Numbered from the stretch's first letter, positions 9,992 through 31,233 are shown. The stretch is 64,000 bases of DNA from an uncultured Mycoplasmatota bacterium (GCA_900553855.1 USFG01000003.1:12630-76629), one strand, 5' to 3'. The notes: a model not told the origin generated them from the sequence alone. A program made the numbers and translations.

Positions 9992-10089
9992 TTTATCCCT
10001 CGATTTCTTATATCAAAATTGTATCAAATTTGCTTAATAAAGAAAAGAATTTAAATTATTTAAAGTAAAGAAAAGAAGAAATATTAGTT

Positions 10090-10285
10090 ATTAATTTTAA
10101 CTTTAGTATTTCTTCTTTTGATAATCCAGTTATATCTGATATTTCATTAGTAGGTTTATTTTGTTCAACATTTTCTTGGTAATTTCTATTTTTCCTTCAA
10201 ATAATCCATTATTTTATGAATCGTTAAGTTCTGATTCTCTTATATAATAATCCAATTCCTTTTGATCATAATTAATAACTTATTA
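10090..10285 (-). pseudogene. Frameshifted C-terminal remnant of an Rpn/YhgA-like (PD-(D/E)XK) putative transposase
   Basis: Minus-strand frames give EGKIEITKKMLNK and then, in another frame, NEISDITGLSKEEILKLK. This is the typical ...EGKxEIAKKMLKxG...ISxITGLSxEEIxKL tail of Rpn-family proteins. It is interrupted by stops and frameshifts, and no N-terminal nuclease part is present. Confidence 0.45.
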
Positions 10286-10288
10286 TAA

Positions 10289-12829
10289 TTATTCTCTTAT
10301 ATCTTTAGACTTGTTTTTTAAGTCAAATAATATTCTTAAAGCATCCATAGGAGTTGTATTTAATGGATCAATTTTATCTATTTCTTCTTTTAATATGTTT
10401 GGTTCTTTTACTGGTTCGGTAAAATCAAATGAGATTTGTTTACTTCCACTATCTTTACTATTTGTTTCATATTCTTTAAGCATCTTATTTGCATCATTAA
10501 TAATGTCTTTAGGAAGTCCTGCTAAATCAGCAACATGAATTCCATAACTTTTATCAATTGCTCCATCTTCAATTTTATGTAAGAATACAAGTTTATTATT
10601 ATCTAAAGTGGCACTAACATGAACATTTTTAATAGTAGGATATTCATCCGTTAAACTAGTTAATTCATGATAATGAGTACTAAAAAGTGTTTTACACTTA
10701 ATATTTTTGGTCACGTATTTTAAAATAGCTCCAGCTAAACTCATACCATCATAAGTTGCAGTACCTCTTCCTAATTCATCAAATAAAATTAATGATTCAC
10801 TAGTTGCATTTTTAATAGCACTTCTACTTTCTTTCATTTCAACCATAAAAGTAGATTCACCACTAACTAAATCGTCACTAGCACCAATTCTAGTAAAGAT
10901 AGCATCAAAAATACATAAATTAGCGTAATCAGCAGGAACAAAAGATCCTATTTGAGCCATAATAATTATGATAGCAAGTTGTCTCATATAAGTAGATTTA
11001 CCACTCATATTAGGTCCCGTTATTAAAAGTGTGTTTATATTTTTATCCATATAAATATCATTTTTAACATACTTTCCATTAGTAACTATATTGATTACTG
11101 GATGAAAACCGTTTTTGATATCAACTAACTTATCATGATTAAATATTGGTCTAATTAACTTTTCCTTTTCTGACACTATAGATAAAGAACATAAAGCATC
11201 AATTATACCAATCTTATTAGATGTTTCTTTCAAAGAAATAATATCCTTTTTAATTGTTTCCTTTATTTCATTAAATAAATCATATTCAAGTTCAATAATT
11301 CTTTCTTCAGCATTTAAAATCATAGCTTCTTTTTCTTTTAGTATAGGACTAATAAATCTTTCGCCAGTAGTCAAAGTTTGCTTTCTTTCCCAGCCAAATT
11401 CTTCCTTAACACGAGATGCTTGTCCTTTACTTATTTCAATGTAGTAACCAAAAACTTTATTATATCCAACTTTTAAATTTTGAATACCAGTTTTTGCTCT
11501 TTCTTCTTGTTCTAAAGTACTTAAAAATTCTTTACCACCACTTCTTATTTTCTTAAGTTCATCTAATTCATTATTGTATCCATCTTTAATTAAATAACCT
11601 TCTTTAATTGTTATAGGTGGTTCTTCATATATAGCTTTATCAAGTAAGTTGTATAATTCTTCATGAGTATTAATTTTAATATCAATATTCATCTTAGTTA
11701 AGATATCTTTTACTTCTGGTAATACCTTTAAACTATTTCTTATTTGTAATGCATCCCTAGCGTTAAAAGAACCACAAGTTAACTTACCACATAATCTTTC
11801 TAAATCGTAAACTTCATATAAACATTTAAGCAAGTCACTTCTTAAAATGAATTCTTCATTTAATTTAGTAATAATATCTAAACGTTTATTAATCTCTTCT
11901 TCATTCCTTAAAGGATTAGATACCCATAACTTTAAAGTACGTGATCCCATACTAGTTTTGCATCTATCTAAAAACCAAATTAAAGAATACTCTCTTTCTT
12001 TTAATCTTAGGGTTTCAAATAATTCTAAATTTCTAATTGTATGGATATTTAAATTTAAATAATTACTATTGTTAATTATTTTAACACTTTCAAATAAAGA
12101 TACATCTTTAAGTTCTTTAACAATTAAATAATAAAATAAATGTTTAACTCCAATAGTTACTCTCTCATCACTAATATTATCTAGTATTTTTAATTCATTG
12201 TCATATAATTCATCACTATAATTAATATTAACACTATAGCTATTTTTAAATAGATTAACTATTTTTTCATTAAAATCTTTTTTTAATATTAATTCTTTAA
12301 TATTTAAAGTAAGAATTTTATTAACTAAAGCATCTTCATTATAGTCTAAAAATTCAGCATAAATATCTCCTGTAGAAATATCGGCGTATGTAAGTAAATA
12401 AGCGTAATTTAAATCTATTATACTTGCTAAATAATTAAAATCAAAAGAATCTAAGAAATCTAAATCCACTAAAGTACCTTTAGAAACTACATTTATTACT
12501 TCTCTTTTAACCATACCTTTAGTTTTTTTTGGATCTTCCATTTGTTCACAAATTGCTACTTTAAATCCTTTATTAACTGCTTTTTCTAAGTAAGGTTTAA
12601 CGGCATGATGAGGCACCCCACACATTGGAACTCTTTCTTCTAATCCAGCATTTTTACCAGTTAATGTTAGTTCAAGTTCATGAGCAGCAACATCAGCATC
12701 TTCAAAAAATAATTCATAAAAATCACCAATACGATAAAATAGTAAAGTATCTTCATAATCTTTTTTGATATCCATATACTGTTTCATCATAGGACTTAAA
12801 TCTTCATAGTTTACTTCATTTCTTTTCAT
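10289..12829 (-). CDS. mutS: DNA mismatch repair protein MutS
   Basis: 846 aa. N-terminal mismatch-binding domain (TPMMKQY..FYRIGDFYELFFEDA), Walker A GPNMSGKST, DELGRGT and STHYHEL. Confidence 0.95.
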   Translation of the reverse strand: MKRNEVNYEDLSPMMKQYMDIKKDYEDTLLFYRIGDFYELFFEDADVAAHELELTLTGKNAGLEERVPMCGVPHHAVKPYLEKAVNKGFKVAICEQMEDPKKTKGMVKREVINVVSKGTLVDLDFLDSFDFNYLASIIDLNYAYLLTYADISTGDIYAEFLDYNEDALVNKILTLNIKELILKKDFNEKIVNLFKNSYSVNINYSDELYDNELKILDNISDERVTIGVKHLFYYLIVKELKDVSLFESVKIINNSNYLNLNIHTIRNLELFETLRLKEREYSLIWFLDRCKTSMGSRTLKLWVSNPLRNEEEINKRLDIITKLNEEFILRSDLLKCLYEVYDLERLCGKLTCGSFNARDALQIRNSLKVLPEVKDILTKMNIDIKINTHEELYNLLDKAIYEEPPITIKEGYLIKDGYNNELDELKKIRSGGKEFLSTLEQEERAKTGIQNLKVGYNKVFGYYIEISKGQASRVKEEFGWERKQTLTTGERFISPILKEKEAMILNAEERIIELEYDLFNEIKETIKKDIISLKETSNKIGIIDALCSLSIVSEKEKLIRPIFNHDKLVDIKNGFHPVINIVTNGKYVKNDIYMDKNINTLLITGPNMSGKSTYMRQLAIIIIMAQIGSFVPADYANLCIFDAIFTRIGASDDLVSGESTFMVEMKESRSAIKNATSESLILFDELGRGTATYDGMSLAGAILKYVTKNIKCKTLFSTHYHELTSLTDEYPTIKNVHVSATLDNNKLVFLHKIEDGAIDKSYGIHVADLAGLPKDIINDANKMLKEYETNSKDSGSKQISFDFTEPVKEPNILKEEIDKIDPLNTTPMDALRILFDLKNKSKDIRE

Positions 12830-12870
12830 TTTTTCTACACCTAGATGTATTATAAAATATTTTAAAGAAA

Positions 12871-12897
12871 ATAAAAAGAAAACAATTTCAGTTTTCT
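12871..12897 (-). terminator. Rho-independent terminator after 12922..13509
   Basis: Stem AGAAAAC/GTTTTCT (12877-12883 / 12891-12897) followed by a T-run on the minus strand. Confidence 0.4.
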
Positions 12898-12921
12898 AAA
12901 ATTTGTTTTCATTAAAAGATA

Positions 12922-13509
12922 CTAACCGATACGAAACGCGGGTGAAAAACCTGCAGAGACGTTTGCACTGAAATCAGCCCAGCCACCAGACGAGCTTATA
13001 TATATAAATATATAATCATAACTAGACCATGCATTTCTTAACCACCAATAAGAATCTTTAATTCTGCTATTATTATTCTTTCCTTTATAATAGTCTAATA
13101 ATCGTGTTTTGCTTGATGCAGTGTCTGGCCCTGTATCGCCAATTTCTGGACTACTTAATAAATATATTTTATCGATTGATGTACAATTCGAATCACTACA
13201 TACATCATAAATAAGTTCACACTTAGTACCTATTTTATTTAAATTCGTTATTGTTGATGTAAAAGATTCTGTTTTTCCGGCTTGCAATCTTAATATTCTA
13301 TCATCTGATTCTCCACTATTTGTTGTTATATTAAATACTAAGTCATTTACTTTAATATTAGCAAATAACATTGAACTATTTTTATTAAAAAATGATAAAG
13401 AATAACCTATAATTGATATAAATAATAACATTATTGTAACAACTAATGTATATTTAAATCTTTTATCATTCTTTATCATTTTAATTATATTTATAAATTT
13501 TTTACCCAA
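12922..13509 (-). CDS. Secreted protein: TasA/camelysin-like (SipW-type) signal plus small beta domain plus DUF6273-like C-terminal piece
   Basis: TTG start behind an AGGAGTGA SD. The N-terminus is TM + GYSLSFFN, followed by beta-strand-like NIKVNDLVFNIT...LQAGKTESF..ITN. The C-terminus is YLLSSPEI...YWWLRNAW...GFSPAFRIG. Confidence 0.6.
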   Translation of the reverse strand: MGKKFINIIKMIKNDKRFKYTLVVTIMLLFISIIGYSLSFFNKNSSMLFANIKVNDLVFNITTNSGESDDRILRLQAGKTESFTSTITNLNKIGTKCELIYDVCSDSNCTSIDKIYLLSSPEIGDTGPDTASSKTRLLDYYKGKNNNSRIKDSYWWLRNAWSSYDYIFIYISSSGGWADFSANVSAGFSPAFRIG

Positions 13510-13618
13510 GTAACTTCACTCCTACTCTAGTGAAATTATATCTTGGGTTCCCCGTCAAGCAAACAATCGTATTTTATAAAAATTTATAGAATGTTTGCTT
13601 GTCGAAATTGTTTTAAAT

Positions 13619-14158
13619 CTATACTCTCATTAATTCTTCTTCTTTTGCTTTTGCTTTCTCATCTATTATTTTATTATATTTATTAATTAAATCTTGGATT
13701 TCTTCATAATAAGTATTTTCTTCATCTTCAGGTAATTCTTGTTTTTTAACATTATTACGAGCATCTTCTCGAGCATTTCTTAAGGCTACTTTGCCATCCT
13801 CGGCTATGGCTTTAACTTGTTTAACATAGTCTCTTCTTTTTTCTTCTGTTAATTCTGGTACGGTCATTATAACCATTTCTCCATTATTTGTTGGAGTAAT
13901 ACCTAAATTAGCTTCGTTAATAGCTCTTTCAATATCTTTGATACAAGATCTATCAAAAGGTTTAATAAATAATTGTCTTGCTTCAGGAACAGTTATATTG
14001 GCTAAACTTTGAATAGGAGTTGGGGCACCATAATAATCTACCATAATACCACTTACCATTGATGGATTAGCACGTCCTGCTCTAACATTATTGAATCTAC
14101 TTTCCATATTTTCAACTGCTTTTAACATTCTAAGTTCTGTTTCTTCTAATATATCCAT
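13619..14158 (-). CDS. frr: Ribosome recycling factor
   Basis: 179 aa with motifs VRAGRANPSM, ITVPEARQL and VPELTEEKRRDYVKQVK. Confidence 0.93.
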   Translation of the reverse strand: MDILEETELRMLKAVENMESRFNNVRAGRANPSMVSGIMVDYYGAPTPIQSLANITVPEARQLFIKPFDRSCIKDIERAINEANLGITPTNNGEMVIMTVPELTEEKRRDYVKQVKAIAEDGKVALRNAREDARNNVKKQELPEDEENTYYEEIQDLINKYNKIIDEKAKAKEEELMRV

Positions 14159-14196
14159 AAATTTTCTCTCTTTCTAATAATAATATATCTAATAAT

Positions 14197-14607
14197 TTAA
14201 CTTAAAGCAAGAATTAATATAGCGATAGTTAATCCAAGTAATAATGATACTTCAAGAATAACTGATGTTAGGATAATACCATTATTATTAACACCGTTCT
14301 TTTTTTCCATAATTAATACTTTATGATGACCCTCTTTATGGGCAATATTTTCTTCACCATAATTTAAATTATTTTTTTGATTTATAACTTCATCATATTT
14401 ATTAACTATATCCATATCAATTAGGTTATTTCTTAGATAATTGGTATATACATCTAATAACGCTTGTTCGTCATAACTAATAGTGTTATCACTCATTTTA
14501 CTTATTAAATAATTAATGTATCCATCAAGAACTTTTTGTTCTTCTTCAGATATAGGGTGTCCTATTAAGATATTTCTAACTATTTGATTTGCATTTTCTA
14601 TATTCAT
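14197..14607 (-). CDS. Hypothetical tail-anchored membrane protein
   Basis: 136 aa. Helical N-terminal part and a single C-terminal TM helix (IILTSVILEVSLLLGLTIAILILAL). No recognisable family. Confidence 0.5.
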   Translation of the reverse strand: MNIENANQIVRNILIGHPISEEEQKVLDGYINYLISKMSDNTISYDEQALLDVYTNYLRNNLIDMDIVNKYDEVINQKNNLNYGEENIAHKEGHHKVLIMEKKNGVNNNGIILTSVILEVSLLLGLTIAILILALS

Positions 14608-14618
14608 TTTTAATCCTC

Positions 14619-17027
14619 CTATCCTAGATTTGTTGGTTTTCCTATGTATGTTATTTTAGCATAACCATTTCCTTCTTTAGAACAATTTGATGTTGGGGTT
14701 CCATTATGACATTTAGTTGAAGTGGTTTTAGTAGAATTATCACTTGATTCAGAACATTCATAACAATACATTGATTTATTAAATAATCTTGAATTGCCGA
14801 TATAAGATGAACCGCCACCAGCACCAGTATGTCTTGCACTACCGCCACCATAGAAACCACCGCCACCACCAGTTTGATAGTTAGCTTGACAATGTTCAGT
14901 TGTGCACCCATTATATTTATTTCCACCTTGGCCAAATGTTCCCGATTGTCCACATATATTTCCATCTTGACATAAGCCGTATGATCCACCGGCCGTTTGA
15001 GTTCCACCTTTTCCGGGGTTTTTACTCCAAGTACCATAGAAACCGTTGCCACCTATATAACCACCGGCATTTCCACCTTTGCCAGATGCACTTGCACTTT
15101 CACTATAATTAATAGATCCACCACCAGCTCCTGAAACAATTAATATACTTGAAATATTTGCTGACAAATCACTTAAAAGTCCTATTTTTTTTGCTATATG
15201 TGTTGCGCCACCGCCACCATAGCCAGTAGAATAGTTGGATCCGCCACCATTATATCCGCCACCACTTGATGTTCCTTGACCACCTACATATACATATAAC
15301 GTTTCTCCTTTACTTAGTGATATAGTTCCTACACTATAACCACCATAGCCACCAAAGTATGTTGATGAATCACTTCCTCCTTGAGCACCCCATGTTTCTA
15401 GTTTATAATCACCGGCTATTGGAGCAGTAAATGTGTAATATGGAGTGGAATTACTAGATGATGGAGCTTCGTATTCATACACTCCATCAATCAAAATTGT
15501 TATTCTTGCATAGCCATCTCCTGTATTACCAGTACCACTTCCATAATATCCGCCATTAGGATTTGGCATTTGTTCTAAATCACCTTTTGTAGTTGTCCAT
15601 TTATATCCTGATCCATCAATCATTAATGTATCGGTAAATACTTTATTGCTATAATGAACACTACAGGAATTATTTGTTGTTTCTGTTGTACACCCAGATT
15701 TTGCTGTTGTATCTGAATTGGATTTTATGGCAATACATCCGGTATGACCACTTATATAAGATGATCCACCTCCAGCTGACCCACCACAATCATGATGACA
15801 GGCTTCTCCACTTCCGCCACCATAGTAACCGCCACCACCGCCGGCACCACCAGAGGTAACGTATGATTTAGCATTTGTTCCTTTTGAAGGGCTACCGGAT
15901 CCACCTTGACCAAAAATCCCTGATTCTCCCGTAGTTCTGTCAGTATTGTCGGAATTTCCAAATGCTCCGCCACTAGTTTGTGAAGCTCCTAAACCTGACA
16001 TTTTATCAATAGAAACATTTACTGCTGAGTAACCTTTTTCGCCACTTAAGCCACCTGCAGCTCCACCATTTGTTCCGATTCCGTATTTATTTAAACCGTC
16101 AGCGTTTGCTCCGCCACCTCCAGCTGCAACCATAATTCTTGAATTTAAATTATCTATTTTTAATCTTATATCAGTGGCTCCGCCACCACCGTCATTGTTT
16201 TTGAGTTTTATTCCAGCATTTCCACCGCCATTGTAGCCTCCGTTTCCGTTTGAATCACCTTGACCACCAACATAAATATATATTGTATCATTTTTATTTA
16301 ATTCGATGTTTCCTTTAACATATCCACCTTTACCACCGTTGGTGCCTCCACCTTTTGCACCCCAAAGTTCTATTTGATATGTTGCTTTAATTGGTGCTGT
16401 AAATGTATAGAAGGGTTTATTTGCATCATAGCTATAATTGTAAATTTTTTGAGTTATTTCTAGGACATCAGAATCACCTGGATTACTTGGATCTGGGGTT
16501 GGATATTCTGGATCATCACCATTAAGGGCATCTTGTTTAATCTTATATGCTTCATATTTAGCAAAATAATAATGATTACCTCTTTTTATCTTAACTATAG
16601 TTAAACAATCATTATTTTCTTCACATTTATCAACATCAGATTTATTTTCAATACTCTTTAAATAAGCAATTGTAGTTCCATCAAAACAATCTAATGAATC
16701 TAAATTTCCACAATTCGTAACTTTTTTTGTGTATAAATTTGTAAAAACATCTTTATCAATAAAATAAATTCTTTCAATACCTAAATTATCTAATACCTTA
16801 TTATCTGATACGTCTACAACTTCTTTACTGTTAGTATTAATGGTATCTTTATTAAGATAAACATAATAGGCTGTATACATATCTTCAACATTATCATAAT
16901 AAGATATTTTACCGCTATTCATAAATATTCTATTATAATTTGAATAAAGTAAAATCATTCCTATTAAAAGCACACTCATTACAATAATAGTTTCTAATAA
17001 AACAAATCCTTTATTTTTTATTGACAT
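14619..17027 (-). CDS. Type IV prepilin-leader protein carrying two tandem glycine-rich (ALK/LTK-type Gly_rich) modules
   Basis: The leader MSIKNKG/FVLLETIIVMSVLLIG has Gly-1, Phe+1 and Glu+5. It is followed by two ~300-aa modules with YTFTAP..Y..E.WGA.GG, VYVGGQG, GYNGGG, GGGGAT, GGGSSYI and G.GYA(R/K)IT. Confidence 0.8.
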   Translation of the reverse strand: MSIKNKGFVLLETIIVMSVLLIGMILLYSNYNRIFMNSGKISYYDNVEDMYTAYYVYLNKDTINTNSKEVVDVSDNKVLDNLGIERIYFIDKDVFTNLYTKKVTNCGNLDSLDCFDGTTIAYLKSIENKSDVDKCEENNDCLTIVKIKRGNHYYFAKYEAYKIKQDALNGDDPEYPTPDPSNPGDSDVLEITQKIYNYSYDANKPFYTFTAPIKATYQIELWGAKGGGTNGGKGGYVKGNIELNKNDTIYIYVGGQGDSNGNGGYNGGGNAGIKLKNNDGGGGATDIRLKIDNLNSRIMVAAGGGGANADGLNKYGIGTNGGAAGGLSGEKGYSAVNVSIDKMSGLGASQTSGGAFGNSDNTDRTTGESGIFGQGGSGSPSKGTNAKSYVTSGGAGGGGGYYGGGSGEACHHDCGGSAGGGSSYISGHTGCIAIKSNSDTTAKSGCTTETTNNSCSVHYSNKVFTDTLMIDGSGYKWTTTKGDLEQMPNPNGGYYGSGTGNTGDGYARITILIDGVYEYEAPSSSNSTPYYTFTAPIAGDYKLETWGAQGGSDSSTYFGGYGGYSVGTISLSKGETLYVYVGGQGTSSGGGYNGGGSNYSTGYGGGGATHIAKKIGLLSDLSANISSILIVSGAGGGSINYSESASASGKGGNAGGYIGGNGFYGTWSKNPGKGGTQTAGGSYGLCQDGNICGQSGTFGQGGNKYNGCTTEHCQANYQTGGGGGFYGGGSARHTGAGGGSSYIGNSRLFNKSMYCYECSESSDNSTKTTSTKCHNGTPTSNCSKEGNGYAKITYIGKPTNLG
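14637..16445 (-). repeat. Intragenic tandem duplication of the glycine-rich module (about 2 x 0.9 kb, diverged)
   Basis: Module 1 spans about 15492-16445 and module 2 about 14637-15491. The motif order is collinear in both. The repeated GGN-rich coding creates the spurious internal ORFs in the track. Confidence 0.7.
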
Positions 17028-17749
17028 GGAGTTGCACCTCCTTTAAGTATAAAAGGGTTGGTACTTGTTCCGTCTCCACCAATTATCATTGTTTCATTAT
17101 GTATATCAAATACTAATCTTACAAATACTTTTTCATTATTAATATCATCATTATTTAAATCTTGTATTTCATGAATGGTATTTTTATCATTATCTTCTTT
17201 TATTTTAATTACTTTACTATTTGTATAATTTTTCTTGTCGGTTGCAAGTAAATACATGCTGTCTAAATTAAAGTCAGAATAAATTAATAGTTTTTTTACT
17301 TTCTCATCTTCTATTTTAGATATTTTTTGTTCATAATCATTTATAGTCATACTTCTAGATTCAATAGTGTTTACACCTTGTTTAACACTTATATAGCCTA
17401 AGATATTATTTATTAATTCTAAACTATTTAATTTAAATGAATAGTTCTTTGATATTAAACTGGCCATATTATTTTTATCAGTTGTACCGTTATCGAATAT
17501 AATATAATCTAATGTATCAGCTTGATTAAAATAACTAGATGATACACATACATTTAATCTAAAATAAGATCCTATTTTAGCATTTTTAAGGTATTTAATT
17601 GAATGTAAATCTTCATTAATTTGATCTATTTCTTTATTTAATAAAAGAGATTTTTGAGCCATATTACCAATGAACACTAGAATAAGTGCACAAAATAACA
17701 AGAAAAAAGAATACAATAAAGATGTAGCTATAAAACCTTTCTTATTCAT
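17018..17749 (-). CDS. Minor pseudopilin-like protein
   Basis: Leader MNKKG/FIATSLLYSFFLLFCALILVFIG is prepilin-like but lacks Glu+5. The C-terminus is GGDGTSTNPFILKGG. A 10-nt overlap (ATGTCAATAA) with the downstream Gly-rich pilin gene suggests coupling. Confidence 0.6.
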   Translation of the reverse strand: MNKKGFIATSLLYSFFLLFCALILVFIGNMAQKSLLLNKEIDQINEDLHSIKYLKNAKIGSYFRLNVCVSSSYFNQADTLDYIIFDNGTTDKNNMASLISKNYSFKLNSLELINNILGYISVKQGVNTIESRSMTINDYEQKISKIEDEKVKKLLIYSDFNLDSMYLLATDKKNYTNSKVIKIKEDNDKNTIHEIQDLNNDDINNEKVFVRLVFDIHNETMIIGGDGTSTNPFILKGGATPCQ

Positions 17750-17804
17750 TTACATACCTTCTAACCTATTATAATTATATAATAAAAATATTCTAAAATC
17801 TATA

Positions 17805-17828
17805 CAAAAAAAGAACAATTTGTTCTTT
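17805..17828 (-). terminator. Rho-independent terminator (spoVID-ysxE unit)
   Basis: 8-bp stem AAAGAACA/TGTTCTTT (17810-17817 / 17821-17828) with a 3-nt loop, followed by a T-run on the minus strand. Confidence 0.5.
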
Positions 17829-17880
17829 CTATAATTAACATAGTAAATATTATTTTCATATAATAATTTAGGTGATATTC

Positions 17881-19717: not shown

Positions 19718-21049
19718 CTAATTAGGATAATAAATTGCTCTTTTACCATAAAGATTATATATTTTTTCTAATTGTTTTCGATTATAACTTTCTATCTTAC
19801 CTGTATAAGAATCGGATACAAAAACTTTGTTTTTATTATATCCAATTACAACGACACTATGCAATTTACATATCCAATTAATTTTTTCACCCGTTGGTTT
19901 ATAAATCCAGTTTGTACATATATCGGTATTTTGCATATTAACTGATGCCCAAATTTGGACAGGAATTCCTTTTTTTACTATTTCTAATACAGCTTCTAAA
20001 GAACGTCCTGTATAATCAACAATACCTGATTTAAATTTATTAGCTACTTCTATTATTGGCTTTTGATAGACACCATAACCGTGTTCATCAGTTGGATCTC
20101 CGACAAATTCAATTTCAGGATTACCACCATAATAAATACCATCTTCATAATGAGGTCCATCGCCCTTTTTTAAAGTATTAACTATTTGACTCATACTAAC
20201 ATTAATTTTATAAAATCTAAGCAAGTTATATAAGGCAGAACTTTCACATCCATTAGGATAATCTGGATATTGATAATAAGTAGGAAAATTATCTATTTTA
20301 TATGTAATGTCTTTTTCAGTAATTGTTATATTTCGGTATTTAGTAGTTTTATTTCCAAGTTTATCTTCTGCATAATATTTTATTTTATAATTTCCCGGAA
20401 CATCATATTTGACACTGCTATCATCAACTGTAAAATTAACCTCACCAAATCTCTTATCAACTGCTTTAACATTAGAATATAAATTATATTTATTTCCAGC
20501 CTCTAATGTAATATTTTTTAATCCGCTAAATACGGGTGATTCTGTATCCTCTATAATGGTTAATTTAGTATTCCCTTCAAATTTATTATTATAATTATCA
20601 TATATTTTAATTAGTACTTCTTGAGTTCCTAACTCTTTTTTTAGCAATAACTCATCATATTTATACAAAGACAAATCAATATCATTGACTATAAAATCTT
20701 TAATAGAGGGTAATTCTTCATCAATGTACATTGTAACTTCTTTTAACTCTATTTTATCTATAACGTTATCATATATAATTAATTTTGATATGTACTCATT
20801 ATTATCAACTATAATTTTAATTTCATAATTACCTATTTCTTTAATATTTTCTAAGTCTTGATCGCATTTAACATTTTTAATATCTTCTTTTAGAAAATCA
20901 TTAATTGTAATTGTTTCTCCATAAGGTTTTATAACTTCTTTTATTATTAATTTATCAATATTGATTCTTTTAACAATATTTAATAATAAAATGGATAGAC
21001 TTATACAAAATAAAACTATAATTATTAATATCCAACTTTTTTTCTTCAT
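19718..21049 (-). CDS. Secreted/anchored C39-like (YvpB-type) cysteine peptidase with Ig-like domain
   Basis: N-terminal TM, an Ig-like segment (ESPVFSGLKNITLEAGNKY...GNYKIKYYAEDKLGNKTT), and a C-terminal papain-like domain with YPNGCESSALYNLL ... HSVVVIGY ... VSDSY. Confidence 0.75.
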   Translation of the reverse strand: MKKKSWILIIIVLFCISLSILLLNIVKRINIDKLIIKEVIKPYGETITINDFLKEDIKNVKCDQDLENIKEIGNYEIKIIVDNNEYISKLIIYDNVIDKIELKEVTMYIDEELPSIKDFIVNDIDLSLYKYDELLLKKELGTQEVLIKIYDNYNNKFEGNTKLTIIEDTESPVFSGLKNITLEAGNKYNLYSNVKAVDKRFGEVNFTVDDSSVKYDVPGNYKIKYYAEDKLGNKTTKYRNITITEKDITYKIDNFPTYYQYPDYPNGCESSALYNLLRFYKINVSMSQIVNTLKKGDGPHYEDGIYYGGNPEIEFVGDPTDEHGYGVYQKPIIEVANKFKSGIVDYTGRSLEAVLEIVKKGIPVQIWASVNMQNTDICTNWIYKPTGEKINWICKLHSVVVIGYNKNKVFVSDSYTGKIESYNRKQLEKIYNLYGKRAIYYPN

Positions 21050-21128: not shown

Positions 21129-21920
21129 CTATTTAAATCTTTCCCTATAACCACATCTTTGGCATAAAGGACTTACTAATTCATGTCTATTAAACCCATT
21201 TAATATTTCTTGATATTTACTAGAATTAATAATTTCATTTATGTCTTGCTTAAATACATTTCCTAATTTATTATCACCATTATTATCTAAGCAACAACTA
21301 ACAACATCTCCATTAACAAGGATTCCAATTTGATCTTTTAAGGCTTTACATGTTCCTTTAGTGCTAATAACAGGTATGTTCAAACTTGGCCAATCAAACT
21401 TTTTATCAACGCTTAAAAATGTATGATTATTTAGGTTATTTCTTGAATTTTTTCTATTAATTTTAACATTATAATGTTTATCTAAAAAATCAAATATTTC
21501 TTTATTATCTAAATCATTCCATAACCTAAAATTAATATATGTATTCTTGATATTATCACATAACTTAACTATATCTTTTATTTCTTCTAAAGAATTAAAA
21601 CTATGTAATGAGATATTTATTTGTCTTATTTTATTATTATTCATAATATCTAATTTGTCTTTTAATAATCTTCCATTAGTAGTTATATTTATATTTAAAT
21701 TATTCTTATTTGCTATTTTAATTATTTCATCTAGATTAGGATGCATTAATGGTTCACCTTTAATATGTAAATAGATGTGATTGGTGTAAATCTTGATTTT
21801 ATTAATTATTGTAGTAAAATTCTCAATATTCATAAATTCTTTTTCTCTTTTGATTTGAGGACAAAATGGGCAATTTAAATTACATACATTGGTTATTTCA
21901 ATATATATTCTTTTATACAT
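21129..21920 (-). CDS. Radical SAM / SPASM-domain protein
   Basis: CNLNCPFC (CxxxCxxC) at residues 13-20, GEPLMHP, and a C-terminal Cys cluster C..CC...C..C (SCCLDNNGD...CQRCGY). Confidence 0.85.
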   Translation of the reverse strand: MYKRIYIEITNVCNLNCPFCPQIKREKEFMNIENFTTIINKIKIYTNHIYLHIKGEPLMHPNLDEIIKIANKNNLNINITTNGRLLKDKLDIMNNNKIRQINISLHSFNSLEEIKDIVKLCDNIKNTYINFRLWNDLDNKEIFDFLDKHYNVKINRKNSRNNLNNHTFLSVDKKFDWPSLNIPVISTKGTCKALKDQIGILVNGDVVSCCLDNNGDNKLGNVFKQDINEIINSSKYQEILNGFNRHELVSPLCQRCGYRERFK

Positions 21921-21935
21921 ATTATGTTTTCCTCT

Positions 21936-23843
21936 TTATCTATTTTTCTTATGTTCTTCAATTTCATATGAATCACCACTACTCATATACGTATTAAAAT
22001 CATCATTTCCAAGATGTCTATATATGCTTGATGGCATTTCAATTCCCTTATTATATTTCTTAGAATTAATTAACATTATTCCAATACCTTGTATTTTTGC
22101 TGTTTCAACGTCTTTAGCAGTAATTTGATCAACACAATATAACGCGATTCTTTTTAATTTAGGTATTCTAGAATCTATATCAGTTTGCGTACTTCCTTGT
22201 TCTAATATTAATACCTCATTATATGTTCTTTTATTATAAAGTAATTCATCAGGCATCATAAGTTGTTCTACTCTATCTGTTGCTTTTTCGGTAAAACTAA
22301 ATGGCTGATATAATGTATAAGAATCTTCTGGAAATATATGAACAATTTGTTCCGGATTTAAATCATTAGCATCATAAACATAAGTATTAGAGTTTTTTAA
22401 ACTACCAAACACAGATATACATCCATTCCCTACTAAAGAATAAGAATGTCCTACCGGCAAACTATCTTCAAATCTAATTCCTGATTTAACTATAGCAAAA
22501 AAAGGATTATCATTGATATTATAAACATCAACACCATATTCATTAGATAGTTCTTCGTCTTTAAATTTAACTAACTCATCTTTAACCATAGCATAATCTT
22601 TTAAAGCTTCTCTAACTTTCTTTCTCGCAAAGGTCATATCATCATAGAAAATTTCCATCATATTATATTGTTTTAACTCATTATGTAACTCGATTTTTTC
22701 TTGTGAAGATAACATATCTATATTTACTATTTGTTGATATAAATAAAGTCTATCTTCAGGAATATCTATATTTCCAGCATAATAAAACTCTAATAATTCT
22801 CTTAAATCATACATTACATTATAGTAGTTTTCTTCAAAGTGATAATCTATAATGTAATCTGATTTTTTCTCATCTAGTGATTTTGTTATTAAATTAATTG
22901 CTTCAGCAAATTCACCATTAAATATAAGCTCTCTAAGATTAGTATATTCATTAGGAAATATTTGGATTTGTCTAATTAAATTTCTAAAAATATCACGATA
23001 TTCATTAGAACTTGAATCTAGGTTGCTTAATTTATTTATCATATTAAAAATATTTTGGTATGTTTTAGGATAATCAGTATTTAAAATAAACTCTTCTTCT
23101 TTTGTTTTAGCATAATTATTTAAATTGGTTGGATCTCCACAATAATTAGCATCATTAATTAAGAATCTATACTCATAAACATTTAACTCATTCCATAATT
23201 TTTTTGCAACATCCATATTTAATAAATCAGATGATAAATAAAAAACTTCTCCACTAGAATTAACATATGAATATCCTTTTCTTTTAGTCATATCTTCAAA
23301 TGAAAGAGATTTACCAGCAGCTACTAAACCACCAACTGGTATATTATGTGATAATAAATCAATATTATATTTTTCTAATATTTTTTTACCAAGTATTTTA
23401 GGATTTCTCTTTAACATTTCATATATTAAATCATTTGGATAATCATACTTATCAATAAATTTTAATCGATAATCTTTATTAAAATAACTAATTAACTGAC
23501 CTGTTAAATTTATATCTTTATTAAGTTCTAGGCATCTATTTACTATTAAATCGTATGTTTTATTATTTAGATTCTTTAACGATGCATAGTATTTTGAAAT
23601 ATCAGTGCTTAAAAATAAATCTAAAAATTTTTGGTTATTAAATAAAAAATCTACATAATTGGAATAATTTAAAATGTATGTAATTCTATCTTCTATATAA
23701 CTATTCTTTTTTAAAAGTTCAACACCTTCATCATCTAATAAGTTAAGAATTTTTCCATTATAATCATTATCTAAAAAATCCAAAAAATCTTGCTTATTTG
23801 AATTAATTATTTTAATTTTTGTAACACTTTTCATATTTATCAC
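21936..23843 (-). CDS. Hypothetical 635-aa cytoplasmic protein
   Basis: Long intact ORF with no TM segment, no signal peptide and no motif I can recognise. It has its own upstream intergenic region after the T4SS-locus terminator. Confidence 0.55.
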   Translation of the reverse strand: MINMKSVTKIKIINSNKQDFLDFLDNDYNGKILNLLDDEGVELLKKNSYIEDRITYILNYSNYVDFLFNNQKFLDLFLSTDISKYYASLKNLNNKTYDLIVNRCLELNKDINLTGQLISYFNKDYRLKFIDKYDYPNDLIYEMLKRNPKILGKKILEKYNIDLLSHNIPVGGLVAAGKSLSFEDMTKRKGYSYVNSSGEVFYLSSDLLNMDVAKKLWNELNVYEYRFLINDANYCGDPTNLNNYAKTKEEEFILNTDYPKTYQNIFNMINKLSNLDSSSNEYRDIFRNLIRQIQIFPNEYTNLRELIFNGEFAEAINLITKSLDEKKSDYIIDYHFEENYYNVMYDLRELLEFYYAGNIDIPEDRLYLYQQIVNIDMLSSQEKIELHNELKQYNMMEIFYDDMTFARKKVREALKDYAMVKDELVKFKDEELSNEYGVDVYNINDNPFFAIVKSGIRFEDSLPVGHSYSLVGNGCISVFGSLKNSNTYVYDANDLNPEQIVHIFPEDSYTLYQPFSFTEKATDRVEQLMMPDELLYNKRTYNEVLILEQGSTQTDIDSRIPKLKRIALYCVDQITAKDVETAKIQGIGIMLINSKKYNKGIEMPSSIYRHLGNDDFNTYMSSGDSYEIEEHKKNR

Positions 23844-24545: not shown

Positions 24546-26810
24546 TTATTCACTAAAGAAATCGTCAAAGTATTCATCATCACTTGGATCGTTAACAACT
24601 TTACTATCTTTATCAACGACAATCTTAGGTTCATCTTTAACATTGTTCTTGGAATTATCACTTTGTTTAAAGAAATCATCGAATTTTTCAACCATAGTTG
24701 AATCTAGTTTATCGTAATCTGTAATTTTATTTGCTTGATTATTTTGTTTCTTTTGCTCTTCTTGTTCTTCTTTTTCTAATTCAGCAATTTTAGCATCGAT
24801 CTTTTTTAATATGTTGTCAACATCAAAATCGGGCTTAGAATTTATATTTTGTTCATTAGCACTTTTTTGAATCATTGGCAAATCTAAGAAGTCAGTTTTA
24901 TCTAAATCTTTTTTATCAGTTGGTTTTTGGTTTAACAAACTATTAAAGTCAAATGGAACACTATTTCCGCCAAATGGAGTATTATTACCAGATGGTTTAT
25001 TTAATCCTTCAAAAATATTACCAATTGGTTTTCCACCACCAAAACCTGCTCCATTCATTCCCATTCCACCATTATTTACGGATTCTAGAAACTTACTTTG
25101 CTTTTGATCTTGAACATATTTTTTAAAATCAAATATTTCAACAGGCGTTTGTTTTCTTTCAATAAATGGGGATTCTTCATCACTATGTCCCCAATTAATT
25201 TCATAACTTGGTGTTAATTTTGTTTTGTAGGGATTCATTCTTTGTCTTAAAATAACAACTTGGAATTTTTTTAGTTTTTGTAAATCACTTGGTGTTAATA
25301 ATGGACGTGATGCGGTTTTTTCTTTTTCTTTTGATTTAATTTCACCACATAATTTACTTATTTCATCTAAATCAGCTAAATCACTACTATTAATAAATAT
25401 TTTATTACCACAGTTACCTTTAATTGTATCGGCTTGTTCTTTGCCATATACATCATTTAACTGAGAAAATCCTTGAATAATAAAGGTAAATCTTATATTT
25501 CTTGAACGAGCTGCTGAAACCATTGCTGTAACATCTTTAAGTGGTGGCATGTTGGCAAACTCATCTAAAATAAAGTTGGTTCTTATTGGTAATTTTCCTT
25601 TTGGTGATTTGTGAGCAACATCAACTAAAACTTCATAAGCTTGTTTTAAGAAAATCGTTGCTAGTGGATGGTATGTTGTTTTTTCATCATGTATTACGAC
25701 GAATAAAGCTGTCTTTTCAGTACCTATTTTATGCATATCAAAATCACTATAACTAAGCATTTGACTTAAGTTTTTTTGTGTTGTAAATTTTTCCATTTTT
25801 TCACTAAATACGGATAACACACTGGTTCTTGTTTCAGTTGGACCAGTAATTGTTGATTTAGCAAAGTTATATGGTGTTGAATCTTTACCCTTTAAATTAA
25901 AGTATTCTGTCGAAAAGTTACTGTTCATTCCCATTTTTTCTTCACCGACAGCGGCCATATAGTTTATTGAATTAATATTAATATATTTTTCTTCAGCATC
26001 TTGAAATAAACCAAGTGCTAAACCATTGAAGTATCCCATACTAGCATTTCCCCAGAATGGATCATTTGCTTTAGGATCATTAACCATATTAAATGAAACG
26101 TCTTTTAATAACTCAATTGCTTTATCTTCGTTTCCTTGTTTATATAGATCATAAGGTATTGCCAAGGGATTCCAAGCATTTCCCATTTGTGGATCACGGA
26201 AATTTAATGTAATAATATTGTAACCTTTACTTCTTAAGAAATTAGCATGATCTCTATATAATTCACCTTTGGGGTCAGTAATAATCATTGATTCACCTTT
26301 ACGGCCTAAGCTTTCAATCATCGGCTCAACTACACATTGACTCTTACCGTTACCAGTTGATCCAATAACTAAGGTATGATATGAACCGTTATCTACCCAC
26401 ATAGCCTTGCCGTCATTAACCATAGGAACACCACCATATTCACTAGTTAATTCACTAATAACAACTTTTTTGACATCATCAGCATTTTTCATTTCTTTAT
26501 CAGTGGTGAATCTGGTATAACCTTTTTCCTCTTCTTTTTCACCTATTTTTAAACCTATTCCTCTACCTTTTTCATGGTCGAATATATATGAAGATATACT
26601 TAAAAATATTGATACTAAAACAGCAATAAACACAAATAAGGTAGCTGGTAAATAAGGTGGAAATAATCCAGCAAAAAAATTCAATCCATATAATTTTCCC
26701 TCGTTTAACAATGATGATAAGTTAACTACTGCTAATGAACATAAAATTAATAAAAATATACTATATATTACAAACATTATTAAATCTTTAGATGATACTC
26801 TAAATTTCAT
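24546..26810 (-). CDS. virD4: Type IV coupling protein (VirD4/TraG family)
   Basis: N-terminal TM helices, Walker A VIGSTGNGKSQ, ITDPKGELY, NAWNPL and Walker B-like FILDEFANMP. A ~200-aa low-complexity C-terminal tail ends in DDEYFDDFFSE. Confidence 0.9.
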   Translation of the reverse strand: MKFRVSSKDLIMFVIYSIFLLILCSLAVVNLSSLLNEGKLYGLNFFAGLFPPYLPATLFVFIAVLVSIFLSISSYIFDHEKGRGIGLKIGEKEEEKGYTRFTTDKEMKNADDVKKVVISELTSEYGGVPMVNDGKAMWVDNGSYHTLVIGSTGNGKSQCVVEPMIESLGRKGESMIITDPKGELYRDHANFLRSKGYNIITLNFRDPQMGNAWNPLAIPYDLYKQGNEDKAIELLKDVSFNMVNDPKANDPFWGNASMGYFNGLALGLFQDAEEKYININSINYMAAVGEEKMGMNSNFSTEYFNLKGKDSTPYNFAKSTITGPTETRTSVLSVFSEKMEKFTTQKNLSQMLSYSDFDMHKIGTEKTALFVVIHDEKTTYHPLATIFLKQAYEVLVDVAHKSPKGKLPIRTNFILDEFANMPPLKDVTAMVSAARSRNIRFTFIIQGFSQLNDVYGKEQADTIKGNCGNKIFINSSDLADLDEISKLCGEIKSKEKEKTASRPLLTPSDLQKLKKFQVVILRQRMNPYKTKLTPSYEINWGHSDEESPFIERKQTPVEIFDFKKYVQDQKQSKFLESVNNGGMGMNGAGFGGGKPIGNIFEGLNKPSGNNTPFGGNSVPFDFNSLLNQKPTDKKDLDKTDFLDLPMIQKSANEQNINSKPDFDVDNILKKIDAKIAELEKEEQEEQKKQNNQANKITDYDKLDSTMVEKFDDFFKQSDNSKNNVKDEPKIVVDKDSKVVNDPSDDEYFDDFFSE

Positions 26811-26859
26811 GTTAATCCCTCTTCTCTTCTTTAAATTATATAATATTATTTATTATATT

Positions 26860-28173
26860 TCAATTCTTACAATTAGCAGAATAGTAAGAACTCATATCTA
26901 TAACAGTATAGCTCTTTAATTCTTGATATGTATACTTTTTATAATCAAGTCCACTAGCATCTATATAGGCTACGGTAACATTTTCACCAGTATTTTGAAC
27001 TATAATGTATGCTTTATCTTCATTAATTACTAGATTTCCTGGATTTCCATATGCTAAATCAATTATATTTGATCTATCATTGTAATCACTAATATTAGTT
27101 ATAGGATTATTTATATTAGCACTATTTATGGCCCAATTTATAAGACTATATTCATTTAAACCAACTATATTACCATCAATTGTTTTTCCCCAATCTGGAT
27201 CAATAACTTTATATTCACTAGAAATATTACTATAAGGAATTTTATAGCCTTTCTTTCCTACTTCATCAATAAGAGTTACTGCTTTTTGAGCTACATTTAT
27301 TCCATTACATTGGTTATTACCAGCATTATTAATCTTATCTGTTAATTCAGTTATTCCATCTTCACCAATTTTTTCACCTAAACTAACTGATAAAACTTCA
27401 TTATCACTACTTGAGAAATCAGTGTCGGATTCTACTGTTCCAGTTTGATAATTAAGATTGCCAAAATTCCAAGTTGTCGTTTCTAAAATATTTTGTTCAT
27501 CACCATCAATTATGTAAAAAAGAAATAGAAAAAGGAATGCAACTCCGAATGCAGCGGCACATATACCTATTATTTTTAATTTTATTATAAGGAGTTTCTT
27601 GTTACCTAAAAATGATGCTGCTCCTCCTTTTTTGCCACCGATTAATCCAGTTATAGCGCTTGATGCATTACCTTTTCCTTTTAATAAACCGCTTATTCCT
27701 TGAGCTTTTGCACCTAATGGACTATTACCTGTAAGCCCATCTTTTGGTGATAAGGGACTCGAGCTGCCAGGACTTGCTGATGATAATGGATTATTATTAG
27801 CTATTCCTTTTAATGGATTTATCATTCTATTTGCTTTATTGGCAGCAAGTTTAGCTAAAGGATTATTACTTTGGTTTAATGCATTTAAGGTATTTTGCCC
27901 TTTAGTAATTAAATTTCTTCCTAAATTTGTACGAGAAAACTTATTATAAGCATTAGCTCCGACAGCAGTTGCAGCAGTAATAGCTGCACTTTTTGCTAGT
28001 TCTTTCATAGGATCAGATGAATACTGATTATTTGGCTTTTTTGCTATATTTGGCTCATTAATATTATTATCTTCTGGTAAATCTTCACTTTCAACTTCAG
28101 TTTGTTCACTTACTTCTTCAGATAAGTTTTCATTTTCTAATTCTTCATCTAAAGTTTCATAATCATTATTCAT
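26860..28173 (-). CDS. Bitopic T4SS-associated protein with [NS]PL repeats
   Basis: Acidic N-terminus and five [NS]PL motifs in a Gly/Ser/Lys-rich linker. One TM helix (IIGICAAAFGVAFLFLFLFYII). The ~200-aa external domain has a QCNGINVAQ motif; a papain-like/NlpC-P60-type fold is only a guess. Confidence 0.5.
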   Translation of the reverse strand: MNNDYETLDEELENENLSEEVSEQTEVESEDLPEDNNINEPNIAKKPNNQYSSDPMKELAKSAAITAATAVGANAYNKFSRTNLGRNLITKGQNTLNALNQSNNPLAKLAANKANRMINPLKGIANNNPLSSASPGSSSPLSPKDGLTGNSPLGAKAQGISGLLKGKGNASSAITGLIGGKKGGAASFLGNKKLLIIKLKIIGICAAAFGVAFLFLFLFYIIDGDEQNILETTTWNFGNLNYQTGTVESDTDFSSSDNEVLSVSLGEKIGEDGITELTDKINNAGNNQCNGINVAQKAVTLIDEVGKKGYKIPYSNISSEYKVIDPDWGKTIDGNIVGLNEYSLINWAINSANINNPITNISDYNDRSNIIDLAYGNPGNLVINEDKAYIIVQNTGENVTVAYIDASGLDYKKYTYQELKSYTVIDMSSYYSANCKN

Positions 28174-28184
28174 ATAATCACTCC

Positions 28185-28655
28185 TTAATTAATTCTTATC
28201 TTATAGTTGTTAATACTATTTTCAATAAAAACAAATTTATTATCGTCTTTATCAATTACATATACTGCTCTTTTGCCATCCACTATTCCACTAGAATAGC
28301 TTTTAACTTCAGCACTTAAAAACTTAATTGTTTTAATACTTGTAATCATTTTTTCAAATTCACTGTAAGTGGAATATTTATTTCTTGTTTCATTATCCAA
28401 ATTATTATATACATCTTTGGGATTATATAATATATCAGATACCAAATTGGCTAAATATTTGGATGAAATTTCCGCAGATGATAAATATAATCTTTGAATT
28501 TCATTTACTTTATAATCATGGAAATATTCAGTAAAATCATTAAATGTATTGGTTTTGTTAGCATTTTTACTATAAATTAATCCAAAAATGATTGTTCCAA
28601 TTATTGATATAACACTTATTATAATTACTATTTTTTCATCACTTTTGCTTTTCAT
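28185..28655 (-). CDS. Bitopic membrane protein (possible VirB8-like/NTF2-like component)
   Basis: N-terminal TM helix plus a ~120-aa alpha/beta domain. Overlaps the upstream paralogue by 17 nt. The functional assignment rests on architecture only. Confidence 0.4.
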   Translation of the reverse strand: MKSKSDEKIVIIISVISIIGTIIFGLIYSKNANKTNTFNDFTEYFHDYKVNEIQRLYLSSAEISSKYLANLVSDILYNPKDVYNNLDNETRNKYSTYSEFEKMITSIKTIKFLSAEVKSYSSGIVDGKRAVYVIDKDDNKFVFIENSINNYKIRIN

Positions 28656-29157: not shown

Positions 29158-29168
29158 ATTTTTCCTTT

Positions 29169-31214: not shown

Positions 31215-31233
31215 AGTTTACACCTTCTTTATT

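Follow-up and report, generated by a model that had tools for sequence, protein, structure and literature searches.

A candidate pair of type IV minor pilins from an uncultured gut bacterium, one carrying two ALK/LTK-type glycine-rich domains

The stretch of DNA analysed here (the window) comprises 64,000 nucleotides from an uncultured Mycoplasmatota bacterium (GCA_900553855.1 USFG01000003.1:12630-76629); its source lineage is uncultured human-gut Bacilli. Two overlapping genes on the minus strand encode an 802-residue protein with a class III leader peptide and two tandem glycine-rich domains (GRDs) of the ALK/LTK type, and a 243-residue protein with a pilin-like leader that lacks glutamate at position +5 (Glu5). 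We consider it fairly probable that the two gene products are a pair of type IV minor pilins, of which the 802-residue one is a modular subunit with its two GRDs at the filament tip. The 802-residue protein combines a pilin module, a short linker, and domains also known outside pilus biology, which is the composition of a modular pilin as defined by Raynaud et al. 2021. The parts of the pair are as follows.

14619..17027 including the stop codon, minus strand: open reading frame of the 802-residue modular prepilin-like protein
17007..17027, minus strand: class III leader peptide MSIKNKG, residues 1-7, with predicted cleavage after Gly7
16533..17006, minus strand: pilin-sized N-terminal module, residues 8-165, with a hydrophobic alpha-1 helix and a small globular part of alpha/beta type
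16413..16532, minus strand: flexible Pro-rich linker with its lead-in, residues 166-205, containing DDPEYPTPDPSNPGDSD, recognised by model confidence and strain variability
15492..16412, minus strand: GRD1, residues 206-512, with the best Pfam stretch at 215-512; strain-variable
14622..15491, minus strand: GRD2, residues 513-802, the second Pfam stretch; conserved between strains
17018..17749, minus strand: open reading frame of the upstream 243-residue protein, a candidate Glu5-less minor pilin
17051..17077, minus strand: motif GDGTSTNPF near the C-terminus of the 243-residue protein, residues 225-233

The six-frame open reading frames (ORFs) of the window were screened for a pilin-like N-terminus (ORFs of at least 40 residues) and assigned to families by a Pfam scan and by the curated equivalog cutoffs of NCBIfam/TIGRFAM (ORFs of at least 100 residues). 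Only two ORFs have a pilin-like N-terminus, and they are adjacent to each other. Both are seen in the sequence at the coordinates and on the minus strand given in a preliminary description of this DNA, with the 10-nucleotide overlap that it reported (ATGTCAATAA). The strong Shine-Dalgarno sequence of the 802-residue gene, AAGGAGGTG, is located inside the 3' end of the 243-residue gene.

The 802-residue protein begins with MSIKNKG/FVLLETIIVMSVLLIGMILLY, which places Phe at +1 and Glu at +5 (Glu12) ahead of a hydrophobic stretch. A cysteine-containing region with conserved Cys135 and Cys141 extends to about residue 165, and the Pro-rich hinge DDPEYPTPDPSNPGDSD spans residues 171-187. The leader, hinge, and module motifs quoted in the preliminary description are all present in the translation. 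A search with residues 1-205 retrieved 43 proteins, and 34 homologs were taken into an alignment; many of them are stand-alone proteins of 142-217 residues, 38-61% identical to the query. Glu12 is invariant in the alignment, and Gly7, Phe8, Val9, and Leu10 are at least 90% conserved; Gly-1, Phe+1, and Glu+5 are the positions best conserved across the homologs. The pilin family TIGR02532 matches 33 of the 34 members at E <= 0.1. The invariant Glu+5 and the family matches bear out the proposal that the N-terminus is a constrained class III prepilin signal rather than a plain anchor. On the window protein itself, TIGR02532 scores 14.4 bits over the full length and 16.5 bits over the first 205 residues, relative to a cutoff of 16.3, and by hidden Markov models (HMMs) the N-terminus appears to be a borderline member of the type IV pilin families. 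In an AlphaFold2 (AF2) model made of it separately, the N-terminal module is formed by a long helix (residues 6-38) and strands at 70-72, 84-91, 140-149, and 152-159, with a predicted local distance difference test score (pLDDT) of 67.7. In the model of the whole protein, residues 160-193 around the linker have pLDDT below 50.

The two modules that follow belong to the GRD family of ALK and LTK, as proposed in the preliminary description; Pfam, a family profile, and structure comparison agree on this assignment. PF12810 (ALK_LTK_GRD) matches the 802-residue protein in two stretches with 255.7 bits against a cutoff of 24.5 (E 7.8e-76), and the better stretch covers profile positions 8-243 of 243. 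GRD1 and GRD2 are collinear and 40% identical over 183 residues (E 2e-18), and both contain YTFTAPI, WGAxGG, GYNGGG, GGGGAT, GGGSSYI, and G(D/N)GYA(R/K)IT. The profile of 106 homologs detects human ALK (2.3e-13), SCD-2 of C. elegans (2.5e-10), and LTK (1e-6) among PDB sequences. A phmmer search of the PDB with the single 802-residue sequence gave no match; the family profile alone reached ALK. The mean pLDDT of the AF2 model of the whole protein is 76.8, and the module blocks mostly reach 83-98. All 21 PDB matches found by Foldseek at E <= 0.001 are GRD chains of ALK, LTK, or SCD-2 (E 1.6e-8 to 4.3e-6, probability 1.0). The glycine runs of metazoan ALK/LTK ectodomains form polyglycine-II helices. 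According to DSSP, most of the confident glycine-rich segments of the model are neither helix nor strand, which is compatible with, but not diagnostic of, such helices.

The 802-residue protein also has structural matches among viral proteins. A search of predicted viral structures (BFVD) gave 70 matches at E <= 0.001, the best with an E-value of 1.6e-33 and TM-scores by target length of up to 0.55, and most of them are virion or tail proteins of tailed phages. For a phage tail protein with a glycine-rich domain and a solved structure, the authors propose that the host receptor is recognised by way of a glycine stem that is conserved and a tip that is hypervariable (PMC9608196). PF12810 is abundant in bacteria, with 2,715 matches among 8,000 candidates scored, and GRDs occur on many non-pilin scaffolds. 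By the strict motif, 72 of the 106 GRD homologs have other N-termini, among them TasA/camelysin-like ones and ordinary signal anchors.

The upstream 243-residue protein starts with a short basic leader, MNKKG, followed by FIATSLLYSFF and a hydrophobic helix, and has Ser instead of Glu at +5. Its orthologs keep MNK(K/S)G/FIATS(L/I)(L/I)YSFF nearly unchanged. Only 95 related clusters turned up when 1.84 billion representatives were searched exhaustively. Across 65 members, which are 19-50% identical overall, Gly-1, Phe+1, Tyr+8, and Phe+10 are present in all (65/65), and position +5 is occupied by Ser in 54, by Ala in 5, by Thr in 5, and by Gly in 1, but by Glu in none. The G/FIATS leader was used to find 80 metagenomic loci, 71 of which could be evaluated for the next gene. 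A Glu5 prepilin gene lies directly 3' of the Glu5-less gene in 55 of the 71, corresponding to 41 of 49 distinct proteins. The median overlap of the two genes is 4 nucleotides, the median length of the downstream pilin is 169 residues, and two or three further prepilin genes often follow the pair. The Glu5-less upstream gene that the preliminary description had singled out is therefore a conserved partner. From its leader and gene context, we propose that the 243-residue protein is a Glu5-less minor pilin that may act as a tip cap or initiator together with the GRD pilin.

The 243-residue protein also contains the motif GDGTSTNPF, at residues 225-233 and thus near its end, not at the terminal position claimed for it earlier. 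Orthologs from seven other loci mostly keep GGDGTxxNP(Y/F), and GxG[TS]..NP[YFW] is present in 32 of 66 family members. Some longer members of the family bear Big_2 or ConA-like lectin modules. A match of the 243-residue protein to NqrC (25 bits, cutoff 563) was dismissed as spurious.

Relatives of both window proteins are encoded next to pilus machinery in other lineages. The proteins P0045 and P0049 (loci L003/L007) carry three GRDs each and score 27.3 bits for N_methyl, above the Pfam cutoff; P0045 is 35% identical to the 802-residue protein over 99% of the query. Their genes adjoin those for PilC (T2SSF), PilD (Peptidase_A24), PilB (T2SSE), and a 158-residue prepilin (MQKNNQG/YMLAE). Locus L088 contains a pilus operon with the following gene order.

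First: PilC (T2SSF), 174.5 bits
Second: PilD (A24_N_bact), 122.4 bits
Third: 152-residue canonical pilin
Fourth, at 9995-10903: 302-residue G/FIATS protein with a CBM_4_9 module (27.0 bits, cutoff 25.9)
Fifth: 171-residue homolog of the N-terminal module of the window protein, 32% identical over 109 residues (E 5e-7)
Sixth: 184-residue pilin
Seventh, at 11998-16065: 1355-residue modular pilin with BspA-type leucine-rich repeats

The minor-pilin genes of this pilus operon thus include homologs of the two window genes, and their order is unchanged. In L088, the Glu5-less partner itself bears the CBM_4_9 module and the last pilin the leucine-rich repeats; different subunits of one minor-pilin set therefore carry adhesion-type modules depending on the lineage. 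A related gut Bacilli genome (L005; 1-2092, 17951-23075) encodes many large proteins in which prepilin-type N-termini are fused to Flg_new, Gly_rich_2, or Gp10_C domains. The L005 genes are scattered among housekeeping genes, which suggests a broad repertoire of surface proteins with pilin leaders in these lineages.

In the window, the gene pair is flanked by the following features.

14197..14607, minus strand: ORF of a downstream 136-residue protein with a C-terminal transmembrane segment (tail-anchored)
13619..14158, minus strand: frr (ribosome recycling factor), PF01765 by annotation in homologous loci
17768-17797, minus strand: sigma-70-like site TTTAGA-18-TATAAT ahead of the 243-residue gene, matching at 10 of 12 positions
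About 17806-17830, minus strand: terminator-like hairpin 3' of a ysxE-like gene (-8.6 kcal/mol, z -2.08)

The 136-residue ORF begins 11 nucleotides past the stop codon of the 802-residue gene. Its product passes no curated family cutoff. Strains share it at 99-100% identity, and orthologs of about 51% identity occupy the same position in L009 and L010; the gene is a conserved third member of the cassette. The frr gene lies 38 nucleotides further downstream with no hairpin in the gap, and is possibly co-transcribed with the cassette, of which it is the fixed downstream neighbour in most species examined. The segment 17768..17830 is a likely transcriptional boundary at the 5' side of the cassette, although the evidence is weak: promoter and terminator scans found such sites no commoner than in shuffled sequence. 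The pair had been placed between frr and a spoVID operon. The position next to frr is confirmed, but the upstream LysM protein scores 17 bits for the SpoVID equivalog (cutoff 169.85) and the upstream YsxE-like protein 70.8 bits for YsxE (cutoff 263.55), both far too low for those names. The GC content rises to 35.6% at 14001-16000, compared with about 21-31% (about 25%) in most of the remaining window. This rise is probably due to the GGN glycine codons of the GRD modules, and we do not attribute it to horizontal transfer.

Most of the stand-alone homologs of the N-terminal module stop at about residue 161-163, just ahead of the position of the Pro-rich linker. In L023, L024, and L026 they occupy the same slot, in the order radical SAM (rSAM)/SPASM gene, LysM gene, YsxE-like gene, gene of about 240 codons, small pilin, and small gene; frr closes the order in L023 and L024, and the rSAM/SPASM gene was not seen in L023. 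Because the stand-alone homologs share the slot, we conclude that the GRD modules were grafted onto a pre-existing small protein. The same pilin module carries one GRD in L009, L010, and P0106 and two in the window species, and three GRDs are present in the more distant lineage of P0045. In P0035, the module is combined with DUF6273 and one GRD.

The assembly collection has 469 blocks in which the exact sequence of the 243-residue partner is indexed, and we therefore regard the organism as very common. A contig stretch in L021 is identical or nearly identical to the window. Nine strains were compared. Genes on either side of the cassette show 92-100% identity, with most at 97-100%, whereas for the 802-residue gene the figure drops to 84.5-87.7% in six strains. 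All of the differences lie in the linker and GRD1 (about residues 176-450), where identity between allele types is 67-75%; the linker itself is 67-81% identical between strains. The leader, pilin module, and GRD2 are 97.6-100% identical, with GRD2 at 97.6-99.7%. There are at least three GRD1 allele types, and their glycine positions are 87% conserved compared with 63% for other positions (p = 3e-5). The synonymous divergence (dS) is 0.85-0.99 in the variable segment, as opposed to 0-0.04 in the N-terminal module and GRD2, and the ratio of nonsynonymous to synonymous divergence (dN/dS) in the variable segment of GRD1 is 0.2-0.3. These values rule out recent positive selection on GRD1. With dS of about 0.9 and this dN/dS, the alleles are old and have been moved by recombination.

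Two loci have unusual forms of the gene pair. In L017 (10723-12530, a variant of window positions 14619-17027), the GRD gene is split into ORFs of 414 and 182 residues by a deletion of about 590 nucleotides, which joins GGGGGYYGGG of GRD1 to GGGGATH of GRD2 at a 12-nucleotide microhomology and shifts the reading frame. The deletion could be a real recombination between the modules or a collapse of the repeat in assembly. The L017 allele is a mosaic, in which linker and core come from different GRD1 types. In L001 (9279-10609, a variant of window positions 16420-17749), identity to the window is only 91% for the 243-residue protein and 94.6% over the first 200 residues of the GRD protein, but 100% for GRD1 and 99.7% for GRD2. 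The L001 mosaic is the opposite of that in the other strains; recombination breakpoints therefore exist at several places in the gene pair.

The 70 phage virion and tail proteins that share the fold, together with the conserved glycines and variable loops of GRD1, lead us to suggest a binding role for the GRDs. We envisage that both proteins enter the membrane via their N-terminal helices, and that a prepilin peptidase encoded elsewhere in the genome would cut each after the leader glycine. The two proteins would then associate, with the Glu5-less subunit on top as in GspK and as proposed for PilA of Streptococcus sanguinis, and the pair would prime or cap a type IV filament built by machinery also encoded elsewhere. 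The two GRDs would end up at the filament tip and bind an external ligand. GRD1, whose old recombining alleles keep the glycine scaffold and differ in the loops, may set the strain-specific binding or antigenic identity, and GRD2 may serve as a constant module. The GRD pilin is thus probably a strain-variable adhesin at a pilus tip. More tentatively, and with somewhat less than even expectation, we speculate that the pair represents a minimal type of tip-adhesin cassette, so far undescribed and widespread among the low-GC Bacilli of the gut. It would combine a Glu5-less initiator, whose G/FIATSLIYSFF leader is almost invariant, with a Glu5 pilin acting as the platform for grafts. In the window species, this platform would present bacterial homologs of the ligand-binding domain of ALK/LTK at the tip of a type IV filament, and GRD1, passed between strains in the form of old allelic cassettes, would set the strain-specific recognition of a receptor on a host, glycan, or other cell target.

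Several results weigh against this interpretation. Pfam N_methyl reports no match on the 802-residue protein at E <= 0.1. Matches to ComGE (NF041013; 26.8 bits, cutoff 49; residues 4-66) and ComGF (NF041002; 18.9 bits, cutoff 80; residues 5-39) are limited to the N-terminal region, and both identities were rejected. The medium-confidence model of the N-terminal module has no PDB fold match better than E 0.47 in Foldseek, so a pilin fold is unconfirmed. The superposition of the two-module query on ALK is weak, with TM-scores by target length of 0.29-0.41 and a root-mean-square deviation of 10-15 Å. No T2SSE, T2SSF, or Peptidase_A24 protein is encoded among the window ORFs of at least 100 residues, which were scanned with Pfam or covered via the annotation of a near-identical contig, or in the approximately 9 kb to the left of the window. 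The statement in the preliminary description that an assembly ATPase, a platform protein, and a prepilin peptidase are all missing from the window accordingly holds for ORFs of this size. PilC or PilD is found within 10 kb in only one of the 80 metagenomic loci with the Glu5-less gene, the other GRD pilins are mostly orphan genes, and the third gene of the cassette is not pilin-like. An orphan position is not unusual for pilin genes.

A rival explanation is that the proteins are displayed on the surface without a filament. The class III-type N-terminus, cleaved by a prepilin peptidase or not, would then be only a membrane anchor, and the linker and GRDs would cross the cell wall as a monomeric or oligomeric adhesin with the 243- and 136-residue proteins as membrane partners, in the manner of archaeal substrate-binding proteins with class III signals or of pseudopilin-like anchors. 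The separation of the cassette from pilus machinery, both in the window and in 79 of the 80 loci, the tail-anchored product of the third gene, and the lack of a recognisable pilin fold in the N-terminal module all fit this arrangement, and the scattered large N_methyl-fused proteins of L005 would point to a general display route. However, the strict conservation of Glu+5 is expected for the packing of filament subunits and is needless for anchoring. The pairing of a Glu5-less with a Glu5 gene mirrors that of tip complexes, and the homologous pair in L088 lies between a canonical pilin and further pilins, beside PilC and PilD. We therefore regard display without a filament as unlikely, although it deserves to be kept in mind, and favour the minor-pilin pair.

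Another possibility is that the 802-residue protein is a plain Sec-dependent signal-anchor protein or a secreted glycine-rich surface protein, with a prepilin likeness that arose fortuitously in an AT-rich genome rich in Lys and Asn codons. The unreported N_methyl domain, the full-length TIGR02532 score of 14.4 below the cutoff of 16.3, and the different N-termini of 72 of the 106 GRD homologs speak for it. Chance likeness is difficult to reconcile with a motif that occurs in only two ORFs of the window, which are neighbours, that forms the most conserved part of the family, and that TIGR02532 recognises in 33 of 34 members. Moreover, full-length relatives pass the N_methyl cutoff and adjoin PilD. 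We consider a fortuitous likeness quite improbable.

The least probable explanation, which we give very little credence, is that the cassette encodes a spore-surface appendage or coat-associated fibre expressed with its SpoVID-like and YsxE-like neighbours: it does lie beside the rSAM/SPASM, LysM (SpoVID-like), and YsxE-like genes in every species examined, and CotE is encoded nearby in L026 and at 47515-48036 in the window, but the hairpin and separate promoter-like site set it apart from the ysxE-like gene, it is packed against the housekeeping gene frr, the SpoVID and YsxE matches are below their cutoffs, the neighbourhood resembles a conserved Bacilli backbone (rplU-ysxB-rpmA, radC-mreCD, and spoIVFA/FB in L024) so that adjacency may be synteny only, and the L088 homologs belong to a pilus operon around which no sporulation genes were called.

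The closest studied analogue of the minor-pilin pair proposed here is the PilA/PilB/PilC tip complex of S. sanguinis. PilA of S. sanguinis lacks Glu5, has a degenerate signal peptide missed by prediction tools, stabilises PilC, and has been proposed to form a tip complex with PilB and PilC; GspK also lacks Glu5 (PMC9934059). Like PilB and PilC (PMC8179133), the 802-residue protein comes from a monoderm and joins a short canonical class III pilin module via a linker to a bulky module that is not pilus-specific. The adjacent 243-residue partner resembles PilA in having a leader without Glu5 that is missed by standard pilin HMMs, and, as proposed for the S. sanguinis trio, the window proteins may form a tip complex that presents adhesive modules. 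Unlike the vWA module of PilB and the lectin module of PilC, the graft in the window protein is an ALK/LTK-type GRD, present twice. The window pair is also separate from pil machinery and any major pilin gene, is accompanied by a third, tail-anchored non-pilin gene, and has no detectable sequence similarity to PilA, PilB, or PilC. The GspK subunit caps the GspH-I-J-K tip complex. The 243-residue protein shares with it a class III-like leader without Glu5 and a gene position with Glu5 minor pilins, two to four prepilin genes following in many loci, but it has no sequence match to any of these families, and its leader G/FIATSLIYSFF is far more conserved than is typical.

The GRDs of the window protein are homologous to those of ALK and LTK (PDB 7LS0, 7NWZ, 7NX0, 7LIR, and others) by HMM, profile, and Foldseek, and contain the same glycine runs; the receptor domain binds a ligand. 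They differ in being bacterial, in being carried by a pilin scaffold instead of a receptor kinase, and in their tandem duplication. The sequence identity is 15-20%, and no ALKAL-like partner is evident. Phage tail-fibre proteins that contain TNF-like as well as glycine-rich domains, such as gp24 of cyanophage Pam3 (PMC9608196), belong to the same fold family and likewise combine a conserved glycine scaffold with variable loops. The phage proteins recognise receptors from their place at a fibre's end, to which we liken the GRD modules. In contrast to them, the window gene is a cellular gene in a conserved slot rather than part of a prophage, and it encodes a pilin helix in place of a trimeric fibre shaft; there is no evidence of trimerisation or of a fibre chaperone.

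Modular pilins are an established class, with 264 catalogued architectures, and Dataset S1 of Raynaud et al. 2021 lists 'IPR012902 - PF12810' (two proteins) and a triple-PF12810 architecture (one protein) without discussing them (PMC8179133). NCBI names one relative of the 802-residue protein prepilin-type. The fusion of GRDs to a pilin had been thought undescribed; it is listed in this dataset and implied by the NCBI name, but has not been discussed or studied. We found no functional study of bacterial PF12810 in the literature, and the sole main-text mention of PF12810 that we found concerns a fungus. As far as could be found, there is no earlier description of the conserved link to a G/FIATS partner, of how the GRDs were grafted at one fixed chromosomal slot, or of GRD1 behaving as an allele cassette. 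The presence of two GRDs on a pilin provides a concrete hypothesis of pilus-tip adhesion for PF12810. If the more tentative reading as a tip-adhesin cassette is correct, it would give the large bacterial PF12810 family its first functional context and offer a tractable model for ligand binding by this fold outside animals and phages. The recombination-driven variation confined to GRD1 makes it a likely determinant of surface specificity among strains in the gut. The pair of a Glu5-less and a Glu5 gene is a recognisable, unannotated signature that could reveal minor-pilin cassettes missed by standard HMMs.

A second hot spot of strain variation is the DUF6273 gene just downstream of frr (12922-13509, minus strand). 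Its product ranges from 129 to 468 residues among strains, and its identity falls to 68-73% in six of the nine, compared with 98-100% for the neighbouring genes. A third variable gene is an ORF of 635 residues at 21936-23843 (minus strand), which has no family match and is 92% identical in four strains, compared with 97-100% for the other flanking genes. The rSAM/SPASM protein encoded at 21129-21920 (minus strand) adjoins the LysM gene, as it does in L024 and L026, and a Peptidase_C39_2 protein with a bacterial Ig-like domain is encoded at 19718-21049 (minus strand). The two genes stand between the LysM/YsxE-like pair and a group of conjugative type IV secretion genes at 24546-33027 (minus strand).

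The conjugation genes include those for a VirD4/TraG-like coupling protein (24546-26810), a cell-wall hydrolase with M23 and phage-lysozyme domains (29169-31214, minus strand), and a VirB4-like ATPase (31234-33027). Many unannotated ORFs continue beyond them up to about 42 kb. All strains examined have the TraG-like gene and two ORFs next to it. The stretch 24546-33027 is possibly an integrated conjugative element. A link between the cassette and the conjugation genes was rejected, since the cassette keeps its place in other species that do not have them.

A 545-residue protein is encoded at 54417-56054 (minus strand). Its N-terminal signal ends with GGITYAFFTANNPEG and presumably resembles the signals of TasA and camelysin. 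The preliminary description had called the protein TasA-like and noted a motif common to it and the 243-residue protein. No Pfam family matches the protein at E <= 0.01, which leaves the label unconfirmed, while the common motif GxGTSTNP(Y/F) is present, with GGTGTSTNPYTID at the C-terminus of the 545-residue protein.

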